A DNA stretch of 14,693 bases, from IMG/VR virus record IMGVR_UViG_2541047965_000006, one strand, 5' to 3'. This DNA is from a virus (taxonomy: Duplodnaviria; Heunggongvirae; Uroviricota; Caudoviricetes). The position numbers were made by a program. This document shows, piece by piece, positions 12,001-14,693 of this stretch. How positions within the stretch are numbered: position 1 is the first letter of the stretch; each line of letters begins with the position of its first letter.

Positions 12001-14693
12001 TTTTATAACCTCAATACGGGCACCAGAAATGGGCTGAAAAACTGCGCAAAAAAGTGCGCAAAAAACTGCGCAAATCGATCACAGAACCGAACACACAGAC
12101 CAGCAGGGCAAAGTCAGATATGACGCGGCTTTCAGGGGAAAAGACCACCGGAAAACTGCGCATTTTTTCCCAAAACGAAACGCAACAGCCGCGCAAAACG
12201 AAACCGATACGTGATGAGCGAAGAAGTGCGCAAAATTTCATTGCCAGAGTTAAGGATGAACCTGAAGGAGAAACCTACGAAATTTTCGTAGGTCAAAAAA
12301 ACGGCGCAGAAATAGATATTATAACAATGACCTACAAACAAGCCCTGCAAGTCATTGATTAAAATCAATTATCGCGAATCGCGAGAATTAGGTTTTGGCT
12401 ATCGCCCGTGCGGAGTAATCCTTGCGGGACGTGACATTGTCATCAAAACAGTGACACACAGGAGGGCCGATGAACGGGCGTTCACCAACAGGGAGCAACG
12501 CCAGAACGCGACCCCGTACCAGTGGAAGAAGCCGGAACGATTGCGGCGGTAACTTGCTGATATTCCCGATAACGCAAAATTGCGTTGGCCTCACCTACTC
12601 GCTCAGCAAAACCCCTTCTAAAGGTATTTTGTGGATAATCAATAAGATGCGTTGACTTGCTGCATTGCAAAAAGTTAAGCAGGAAGGCACGGCCTGTAAG
12701 ATGGGATGCTGTGTGATGATTCAGCCCACCAGCAACTATAACGATTCCCGTTACAGTTGATGTGCTTTTTTGCTGGTAAGGCGTAACCCGTTGATTGTTC
12801 CAGAATCCCCCATTGGGGGAAAAGCTGGCTACATCCCTCACTTCTGAGGACTGTTAACCAGCAGGCTGAAATATACTCACAAATTACGAAATTTTCGTAA
12901 ATTTAACTTTCATCCAGTACATCCCCGAATTACGGGTATGTAACCACAGCCATTACGAGGTGTTGTTGATGCGTGATATTCAGCAAGTGCTGGAACGCTG
13001 GGGAGCATGGGCGGCAAATAATCGTGAGGATGTGACCTGGTCATCGATTGCAGCCGGATTCAAGGGACTTATTCCATCAAAGGTAACCTCCCGTCCACAG
13101 TGCAGTGATGATGACGCGATGGTGATATGCGGGTGTATAGCCCGTCTTTACCGGAACAACCGCGATTTGCATGATTTGCTGGTTGATTACTACGTGCTGG
13201 GCATGACGTTTATGACACTGGCACGAAAGCATGGATGCTCAGATGGTTATATCGGGAAAAGGTTACAGAAGGCTGAGGGGGTTGTTGAAGGCATGTTGAT
13301 GATGCTGGATGTGAAGCTGGAGATGGATCGGTATGTTGAGCGGGAAGCGCTGATTTCGTAACGCACAGACAAAAAAAACCGCAGTCGGACCCTGCGGTGG
13401 AGAATAACGTCACAATCAGGTGTATGAAGAACAAGAAAAAACGTATTGCTCACAATTATGCCACGAGACAAAGTGCAGTGCACCCTGAACAGTGATAATC
13501 ACTACACAGACCAGCAGGGCACATGTGAATCATCATTACGGTGATCATGCCTCCCCCATCCCGAAACAGGGGACAGGGTTACGAAATTTTCGTAACCCCT
13601 CCACGGTTGCCCTTTAAGTGCAGGCGTATTTGCATAACGTCGTTAACCAGTCACCCACTGATCACGCTCAAACATACGCAGAAACGGGGCTAAATCGCAT
13701 TCTGGCGCAATATTTGTTGTAGGGGCTGGCATTCCACCGGAAAACGACTACAGGCTTACAGGCAGCTTAAAATTCGACAGGCGAATAACAGGGCGGGATC
13801 TGGAGGCCTGCACAAAAAGAGCAGGTTACTACCCGAAAAGTGTAGTGCCATATCGGGGCTAAAAAAAACCGCAGTGCGATAACACTACGGTATATGCCAC
13901 CAAAGAAACACAACAAGAGATCAGCAATGAGTAGTACCTGTAAGCCTTCGGGGTAATTGTAACACATGAGCAATCTTTTACTGGAAACGGTTTTTCACTG
14001 GACGCGATGCCGATATTGCAAATCAGCACAGAAAGGGGATGCCTGATACAATACCCTCACCCGATAAAATCCCACCGATAAACTCATCTGCCACGAGCAG
14101 AAAGAGCGAACGAACCCGATACGCAGTAATGCTTGTCGGGTTCAGCTTTTTAAGGCGGCTGTAGATGTCGTGCTCATCCACCAGCTTCATAGCGGATAAC
14201 CGGAAAAATTCCGGCTCATGGTTGTACATTTCTTCAGCAAATCATTTTAGCTATACGTTTGGTTATACGATTTCAAAATTCAATTAATCGATTTCTTTAA
14301 AATCATGTAGTTACACGCTTAATTAAACTCCTCTCGTGGACCAAAAATCCCAAGAAAACCAACCTATTGCGGTTGGTTTTTTTATATCTGCATTTAATTC
14401 GATAAACAGACCGCGACACATCACGGCCTGTTTATTTTCTGTTATCAGAACGTCCAGACCACACCCGCCTGAGTTGTGCTGCTTTCTTCACGGGAGAAAC
14501 GGCTGTCGATACCAAGCGTTAGCCCCGTCAATGTTTGCTCAAAGCCAGCGCCTGCATCAGTGGTCACGTTGTTGCGGCTGTTAATTGCCGAACTCCACAT
14601 CGCCGTATCGTAATTAACGCCTTTTACGCTACCAAGACGCCCACGCACGGTGTCCAGTTCTGCATCAAATACCAGCGGTTGTGCTGCCGCCAT

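Follow-up and report, generated by a model that had tools for sequence, protein, structure and literature searches.

The stretch of DNA analysed here (the window, 14,693 nucleotides; IMG/VR virus record IMGVR_UViG_2541047965_000006) originates from Escherichia coli UMEA 3703-1 (GCA_000461615.1) and represents an integrative island of ~14 kb, which encodes an integrase, a Rha-like protein (1956-2654), an Ash-family protein, a DUF4222 protein, a DUF927 primase, a single-stranded DNA-binding protein (SSB), a ProQ/FinO-domain protein (9178-9663), a PerC-family protein (9623-9925) and the antiterminator Q. It is a satellite island of the phage-inducible chromosomal island (PICI) type, the class to which such islands are assigned in recent literature, and its relatives are found at several chromosomal sites in complete E. 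coli genomes. The element considered here is a palindrome, TACGAAATTTTCGTA, three copies of which, with arms of 8-11 bp, are present in the window, the number expected by chance being 0. The initial annotation had located these copies around the Q gene, and its coordinates and arm lengths proved to be exact, as did the spacing, with copy 2 ending 69 bp upstream and copy 3 starting 215 bp downstream of Q. The features concerned are as follows (ORF, open reading frame).

12120-12362, plus strand: 80-aa ORF with part of an Ant1-type central domain as its C-terminal half (…NFIARVKDEPEGETYEIFVGQKNGAEIDIITMTYKQALQVID*); phrog_1726 anti-repressor, E 3e-4
12235-12352, plus strand: relic of a P1-type ant1/ant2 gene; blastn against phages, 118 bp, 96.6% identity to Escherichia phages RCS47 and phi456
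12273-12293, unstranded: palindrome copy 1, ACCTACGAAA-T-TTTCGTAGGT, 10-bp arms, in frame T-Y-E-I-F-V-G of the ant relic
12884-12900, unstranded: palindrome copy 2, TTACGAAA-T-TTTCGTAA, 8-bp arms, in the Q leader region
12969-13361, plus strand: Q antiterminator gene, ATG at 12969; PF06530, E 4e-52; phrog_79
13576-13598, unstranded: palindrome copy 3, GGGTTACGAAA-T-TTTCGTAACCC, 11-bp arms, equivalent to the unit named 'alpha' in the array downstream of Q of E. coli relatives

The canonical core TACGAAA-N-TTTCGTA was recovered in all three copies, in line with the identical core described earlier. A search with the pattern TTACGAAANTTTCGTAA, allowing up to two mismatches, returned exactly three sites, namely 12275-12291 (CTACGAAATTTTCGTAG), 12884-12900 and 13579-13595, and thus no additional degenerate copies in the window, while none of 200 dinucleotide-preserving shuffles matched the pattern. 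All three palindromes represent the same cis-element, which consists of this core with arms usually extended to 8-11 bp and has its home in the Ant1/KilA-type phage anti-repressor gene. Copies 2 and 3 are free-standing, non-coding and typical of the accessory end of this family of PICI-type islands. Every copy of the element seen in the course of the analysis was located in phage or satellite DNA.

The element within ant genes

Copy 1 sits in the ant1 relic and owes its sequence to ant1. The 80-aa ORF that contains the relic is probably a decayed fusion. Protein P0001 of the metagenomic relative L305 has the same N-terminus joined to a complete central domain of 85 aa, and the ORF of the window is hence to be regarded as a further-deleted version. 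When TACGAAANTTTCGTA was searched for in viral contigs, many of the matches were found in one coding context, F[IV]AR[IK][KR]DEL[ED]GE..YE[ITSN]FV, and the palindrome is therefore the codon string TAC GAA ANT TTC GTA. The proteins concerned are Ant-family anti-repressors (phrog_63) with a C-terminal KilAC/ANT domain. In the window, the Y-E-x-F-V reading within the Ant central domain is confined to copy 1 (ETYEIFVGQKNG); translations of copies 2 and 3 gave no such frame. Meanwhile, proteins P0035-P0038 from Salmonella chromosomes (101-106 aa, one cluster of 26 sequences) comprise little beyond the Ant central domain, which can thus occur without the KilAC part.

For codon analysis, ant sequences were retrieved with the peptide patterns RESKxVR and NDFxxRxxDE, neither of which overlaps the motif, and 99 distinct central-domain sequences were counted. 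The codons of the motif are TAC in 99/99, GAA in 98/99, TTC in 99/99 and GTA in 99/99 of them. Other invariant residues of the same sequences use 2-6 codons, with 0.75-2.3 bits of synonymous entropy, and valine elsewhere is encoded by GTA in just 5-17% of cases. The constancy of the motif codons extends to viral contigs of 55-66% G+C, in which GAG and GTG would be expected to be favoured. Between the two halves of the motif, I, T, S or N is found, the residues specified by ANT/ANC codons (third base T in 77 of 78 loci), and the central base is thus free. Wobble pairs are almost absent from the core, though GTG, GAG and TTT would be synonymous.

The residues flanking the motif covary as reverse-complement codons (T/G, G/T, H/V, F/K and Y/I), the codon pairs being ACC/GGT, GGT/ACC, CAC/GTG, TAC/GTA, TAT/ATA and TTT/AAA. 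Across the 10-bp dyad in 65 distinct segments of 33 nt, 95.7% of cells pair, and two-sided changes are seen at six of the ten pairs. The covariation score was 0.407, compared with 0.119 in shuffles, 0 of 500 of which reached it, and slid controls paired at 34-45%. The element is constant at the nucleotide level in phages of E. coli, Klebsiella, Salmonella, Acinetobacter, Vibrio and Shewanella. Even where protein identity is down to 35-53%, as in an Acinetobacter Obolenskvirus, in one phage each of Vibrio and Shewanella and in a Drexlerviridae phage of E. coli, the canonical core is retained; in one Pseudomonas subfamily, it has been lost along with the YExFV strand. Judging from these codon and covariation patterns, the palindrome is under selection at the nucleotide level inside ant. 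The P1 record, which is richly annotated, marks no feature at the palindrome site, and a full-text literature search for the palindrome sequence returned no relevant paper.

The site and the Ant protein change together. Three variants of the palindrome match three variants of a helix motif of the Ant domain in 163 of 163 loci, with no exception:

Core TACGAAAnTTTCGTA: Ant-domain motif xDFxxR, 120 loci
Core TACACAAAAAGTGTA: NKFIEK (one NKFIAK), 35 loci; one with T at the sixth base, and P1 ends in GCA
Core TACAAAAnTTTTGTA: N[VQ][FL]x[ED]R, 8 loci

The residues that track the site fall in predicted helix 2 of the central domain, and replacement of the Asp of this helix accompanies the change of a G:C pair of the site to A:T. 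From this correspondence we infer that the helix-2 Asp would contact the G:C base pair. The central domain itself shows a weak match to an APSES-like fold.

Free copies of the element and the region around Q

Six E. coli relatives with a Q gene, all of them sequenced, have 2-4 copies of the element each. In five of these, one copy precedes Q by 71-100 bp, and 1-3 further copies are found 124-2200 bp downstream of the gene within repeated units, copy 3 of the window belonging to this variable array. The spacings of 609 and 695 bp between the copies of the window are not kept in these relatives. The flanks of copies 2 and 3 are related to other islands as follows.

12824-12883, plus strand: conserved 60-bp unit left of copy 2, ~90% identity to phoQ-adjacent islands
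13599-13830, unstranded: conserved non-coding flank right of copy 3, ~80% identity to relative L001
13806-13807, unstranded: empty site (GGAGG/CCTGC), at which L218 (2770-2800) and L220 (2735-2760) carry an extra block of 21-22 bp, CTTACGAAAATTTCGTAACCC, composed of the palindrome only

The 60-bp unit matches 560 E. coli records, and in those sampled the homology ends at the palindrome; the unit around copy 2 was not found in deposited phage genomes. The phoQ-adjacent island, two records of which were examined in detail, encodes an integrase, Icd-like protein, RepA, SSB, PerC, a capsid protein, a decoration protein and TerS, and carries one copy of the palindrome with neither a Q nor a ProQ gene. 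The left flank of copy 2 matches islands of this type well. An insertion of a Q cassette accompanied by duplication of the palindrome was considered but not upheld, as the right flank of copy 3 shares only ~12 nt (TCGTTAAC.AGT) with them. The clean presence or absence of a copy at 13806/13807 means that copies are gained or lost as units. No half-decayed copies were found in the window or L001 with up to 2-3 mismatches, the copies being either perfect or absent, and the core of 15-17 bp was intact in all 22 copies examined.

At 12 loci with homologues of Q (70-88% identical), all prophage-like where their context was read, there were no matches to TACGAAANTTTCGTA within 3 kb on each side where the contig allowed. 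The element is not tied to Q. The initial annotation had proposed that the palindromes are sites for a dimeric protein controlling or insulating Q. Of this proposal, the anatomy of a dimer site (perfect arms of 8-11 bp in 3/3 copies, with T, A, C or G as the central base across copies and homologues) and the copy ahead of Q in most relatives hold good. However, a single Q-centred set of operators does not, because copy 1 is a gene relic, copy 3 is a member of a variable array and the phoQ-adjacent island has the element without Q; the motif search in other Q regions, which had been suggested as a check, likewise gave none at the 12 loci. In agreement with the accompanying remark that the motif was not recognised as a known LexA, CI or qut site, it is neither a LexA box nor a known CI operator nor a qut/Q-binding site.

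Several identities were ruled out. The LexA (SOS) box CTGT-N8-ACAG was rejected since TTACGAAATTTTCGTAA contains neither CTGT nor ACAG. Among nine terminator-like sites in 11900-14693 none coincides with a palindrome, the stems of which are A+T-rich and have no T-run, and an intrinsic terminator was dismissed. A lambda-type cos site was excluded too, the window containing a single chance-level match to GGGCGGCGACCT, located elsewhere. Rfam returned no family at the gathering threshold near the sites and no credible one at E up to 5. Homology between the Rha-like protein of the island and the Ant central domain was discounted (hhalign probability 0.2%), and so was an obligatory partnership with ProQ/FinO, the gene of which is missing from the phoQ-adjacent island. 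The literature on IsrK/AntQ of Gifsy-1 concerns a different context, and the palindrome is not described there.

The transcription signals next to Q are the following.

12918-12942, plus strand: second conserved hairpin (hairpin B) of the Q leader, TACATCCCCG-AATTA-CGGGTATGTA; in relatives, changes on one side only, to G.U on the plus strand
13371-13398, minus strand: terminator-like site abutting the Q stop codon
13861-13891, minus strand: terminator-like site sharing AAAAAAAACCGCAGT with the site at 13371-13398

The two terminator-like sites on the minus strand imply one or two small transcripts converging on Q. No sigma-70-like promoter was predicted near any of the copies; a -10-like TATACT lies 6 nt upstream of copy 2 and is not retained in L001 or L219.

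Other repeats were noticed in the same part of the island. Iteron-like direct repeats at 12038-12240, directly upstream of the ant relic, comprise TGCGCAAAA (4-5 copies) and AAAACGAAAC (2 copies), with AAATCGATCA in relatives; they are kept in L001 and L305 and could serve as a replication origin or a regulator array. At 12093-12110 and 13504-13521, 1.4 kb apart, Q is flanked by an exact 18-nt direct repeat, ACACAGACCAGCAGGGCA, both positions of which are kept in L001 with substitutions. A gene-end module at 12516-12590 (L135 3880-4190), in which …KKPERLRR* is followed by CTTGCTGATATTCCCGATAACGCAAAATTGCG containing the small palindrome AACGCAAAATTGCGTT, occurs up to three times in relatives and marks additional homology breakpoints. 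A second repeated partial palindrome, TCAATTATCGCGA(A/T)TCGC…, is found at 9950-9973 and 12365-12388, 2.4 kb apart.

Candidate roles of the element

The reading ranked first, albeit tentatively, is that the element may be the cognate site recognised by the central domain of Ant1-type proteins, the island reading or titrating phage Ant. It was placed ahead of the others because of the exact core with its few wobbles, the feeble hairpin of copy 2, the compositional nature of the strand asymmetry in folding and the fact that Ant is its sole travelling partner: across hosts and phage types, the only constant companion of the element is the ant gene/Ant protein itself. Binding of the palindrome by the Ant1-type domain would most probably involve a symmetric dimer and DNA in duplex form, and the site inside ant would then serve autoregulation, for example as a roadblock. 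Through the free copies, phage Ant would act on transcription of the island, with copy 2 coupling the Q leader to Ant and copy 3 likewise coupling the transcript that converges on Q; alternatively, the island copies would merely soak up Ant. The copies could double as joints for the exchange of modules. A broader proposition, namely that the Ant1/KilA-type central domain might be an unrecognised sequence-specific DNA-binding domain with its site in its own codons, five of which would thereby have been frozen in phages of several gamma-proteobacterial genera and in GC-rich viral contigs, and that PICI-type satellites might have captured free copies of it and set them in the Q leader and the convergent transcription units in order to sense or titrate helper Ant as an early induction signal, is somewhat less probable.

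A number of observations weigh against recognition of the site by Ant. The correlation between site and protein may reflect shared descent of subfamilies only, and the P1 record annotates Ant1/Ant2 as a C1-repressor-binding protein and not as DNA-binding. The island has no intact Ant domain, only the 42-residue fragment of the window, and no intact candidate binder is encoded in the window or in L001, the sole relative island that was fully read, so that a binder would need to be supplied by a co-resident phage. In Klebsiella prophages, ant genes of the P22_AR type, an unrelated family without the central domain, have the element after the stop codon and before a terminator, and one of these prophages holds two variants at once, TACAAAATTTTTGTA by the P22_AR-type ant and a canonical copy 1.7 kb away. 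The outer pair is T.G in five of the 13 downstream copies in relatives, with the same strand affected each time, and the outer dyad positions are variable yet complementary, as would be expected of base pairing rather than of protein contact. Finally, the lack of predicted promoters already mentioned speaks against recognition by Ant in the case of copies 2 and 3.

The explanation ranked second is possible and nearly as likely: the copies would work as RNA hairpins independently of Ant, copy 2 in the 5' leader of the mRNA for Q and copy 3, like its relatives, in minus-strand transcripts converging on Q, setting RNA stability, processing or translation, and the self-complementary copies could pair mutually or with the ant mRNA of a phage. 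Covariation is of the helix type, with four pair types at the outer positions; the G.U-compatible outer pairs of the five downstream copies are consistent in strand, and the opposite kind was never seen; the P22_AR-type element, as read from the sequence, lies between a stop codon and a terminator hairpin with T-run; and the own site of P1 is fully paired on the antisense strand only. The minus-strand terminator-like sites at 13371-13398 and 13861-13891 agree with this explanation, and so does the RNAalifold consensus of six Q leaders, which includes the palindrome hairpin, hairpin B and a pairing beside the Shine-Dalgarno sequence. This pairing joins 12873-12880, 5' of copy 2, with 12960-12966, the stretch from Shine-Dalgarno to start codon, and shows one U.G to C-G change among the six sequences; according to the folding model, it may occlude the Q ribosome-binding site. 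Minus-strand folds are the more stable in 13/13 units (-20.6 vs -12.7 kcal/mol), with G-rich 5' and C/U-rich 3' flanks. However, most of this difference is compositional, z being only -0.9 once the flanks are shuffled, and with the gap of 8 kcal/mol largely gone, strand asymmetry was rejected as proof of an RNA role. Furthermore, copy 2 is weak as an RNA hairpin (-4.5 kcal/mol), there is no match to an Rfam family, and the nearly wobble-free core means that the exact sequence is selected, beyond mere pairing.

The remaining explanations are less probable than these two. It seems unlikely that copies 2 and 3 are functionless recombination scars from ant genes and islands, kept perfect by template-switch correction of quasi-palindromes and noticed as recombination hot spots, even though copy 1 is demonstrably a gene relic, several non-coding copies retain 3-4 flanking bases of ant subfamilies (GGGT..ACCC, GACC..GGTC) and a 24-aa stretch on the minus strand of L218 is still 42% identical to Ant. 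Scars would also fit the loss of homology between islands at or beside copies 2 and 3, the clean presence or absence of the copy at 13806/13807 and the mosaic of repeated 3'-end modules in the region around them. Nevertheless, the flanks have decayed past recognition with the core intact in every copy examined and with no half-decayed copies in the window or L001, the position upstream of Q is kept in five of six Q-carrying relatives, and arm position 8 of copy 2 shows a compensatory C-G to T-A change. Operators of a dedicated dimeric repressor of the island or host, controlling or insulating Q, are improbable: the perfect dyad, the free central base, the copy 71-100 bp ahead of Q in five relatives and the available DNA-binding candidates (the Rha-like protein at 1956-2654, the PerC-family protein at 9623-9925 and an AlpA-like HTH protein in relatives) would suit them, but the element is also found where there is no Q, and in phages from many genera with none of these island genes, the Rha-like protein does not resemble the Ant central domain at the profile level, none of the sites is overlapped by a sigma-70-like promoter and the 609 and 695 bp spacings are not conserved. 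As for qut, at which the Q of the island would load onto RNA polymerase, nearness to Q and the position of copy 3, 215 bp downstream, where lambdoid phages place the late promoter, initially spoke for it; it is already contradicted by the 12 homologous-Q loci with no copy within 3 kb on either side, by the presence of the element in islands without Q and inside ant genes and by the absence of a predicted promoter beside copy 3, and was therefore rejected as extremely unlikely.

Further features of the island and related systems

Elsewhere in the island, Rfam detected isrK (51 bits) and the C4 antisense RNA (77.6 bits) in tandem at 4256-4444 on the plus strand, inside the region of the Ash-family ORF; the island has, by this tandem, an RNA immunity module of the P1/P7/P4 style. 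These RNAs lie upstream of the primase operon and of small ORFs that hold the place of the Icd-like genes of L001. A protein of 550 aa (10347-11999, plus strand) contains Phage_Tail_Tip and the C-terminal receptor-binding domain of tail-tip protein J; there are no other tail genes in the satellite, and this protein may retarget or interfere with the tail of a helper phage. Beyond the right end of the island, a bidirectional-looking terminator hairpin (14352-14383) and the 3' part of an ORF (14445-14693, minus strand) were noted, and further downstream a called gene (L304 4728-5117) shows a faint Pertactin (autotransporter-type) match and is followed by a response-regulator gene.

Palindromic operators, in-gene sites and stem-loops at module joints are already known kinds of element, and roadblock operators inside genes include lac O2 and the PurR site in purB. 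Roi of phage HK022 reportedly binds a site within roi beside an IHF site and shares its C-terminal KilAC domain with P1 Ant1. As with Roi, the present element is embedded in a coding sequence, that of a phage regulatory gene in the Ant/KilA/Roi neighbourhood. Unlike Ant1, however, Roi is devoid of the central domain, and it was absent among the 40 of 225 tblastn matches listed. Moreover, the ant site differs from that of Roi in being encoded by the conserved beta-strand of the central domain itself, in being conserved across several gamma-proteobacterial genera and GC-rich contigs and in its export as free copies to satellites, the binding being putative here.

Mobile cassettes and boundary sequences are known from the module joints of phages, for example the PeSL promoter/stem-loop cassettes of T4-type phages and the lambdoid boundary sequences. 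The present element resembles them as a short stem-loop that recurs at module edges, the homology of relatives stopping at or beside it; it differs in that no predicted promoter accompanies it and that it also occurs within codon-constrained coding sequence. A likeness to FinP/traJ with FinO of F-like plasmids may be seen in the identical self-complementary hairpins possible on convergent transcripts and in the ProQ/FinO-domain gene present here, in L001 and in L305, but in contrast to FinP/traJ, the phoQ-adjacent relative has the palindrome without a ProQ/FinO gene.

In Staphylococcus aureus phages (phiNM3, phiN315 and relatives), the cI/cro switch contains the identical 15-mer TACGAAAATTTCGTA twice, ~235 bp apart. 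One copy is placed exactly between TTGACA (-35) and TATATT (-10), as seen in L043, L048, L054 and others, and the sequence thus occurs where an operator would lie; the other is located in the 3' end of an XRE-type/Cro-like HTH gene and likewise reads Y-E-N-F-V. However, the protein is unrelated (HTH_3), the host belongs to another phylum and an operator role is suggested by position only. With ~200 random matches expected in the collection, this match is probably due to convergence or chance.

What appears to be undescribed is an element frozen in the codons of a widespread phage regulator, with compensated variants that track the protein and free copies in satellites. Anti-repressors determine when a prophage turns lytic, an event that satellites have to detect. 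The constant element of 15-21 bp in ant, from P1-like and Stx phages to those of Acinetobacter, Vibrio and Shewanella, points to an undescribed layer of ant control, be it autoregulation at the DNA level or an RNA hairpin. As a practical caution, synonymous recoding of this stretch of ant1 may not be neutral. The free copies beside Q in PICI-type islands, in turn, represent a testable candidate for cross-talk between helper phages and their satellites.

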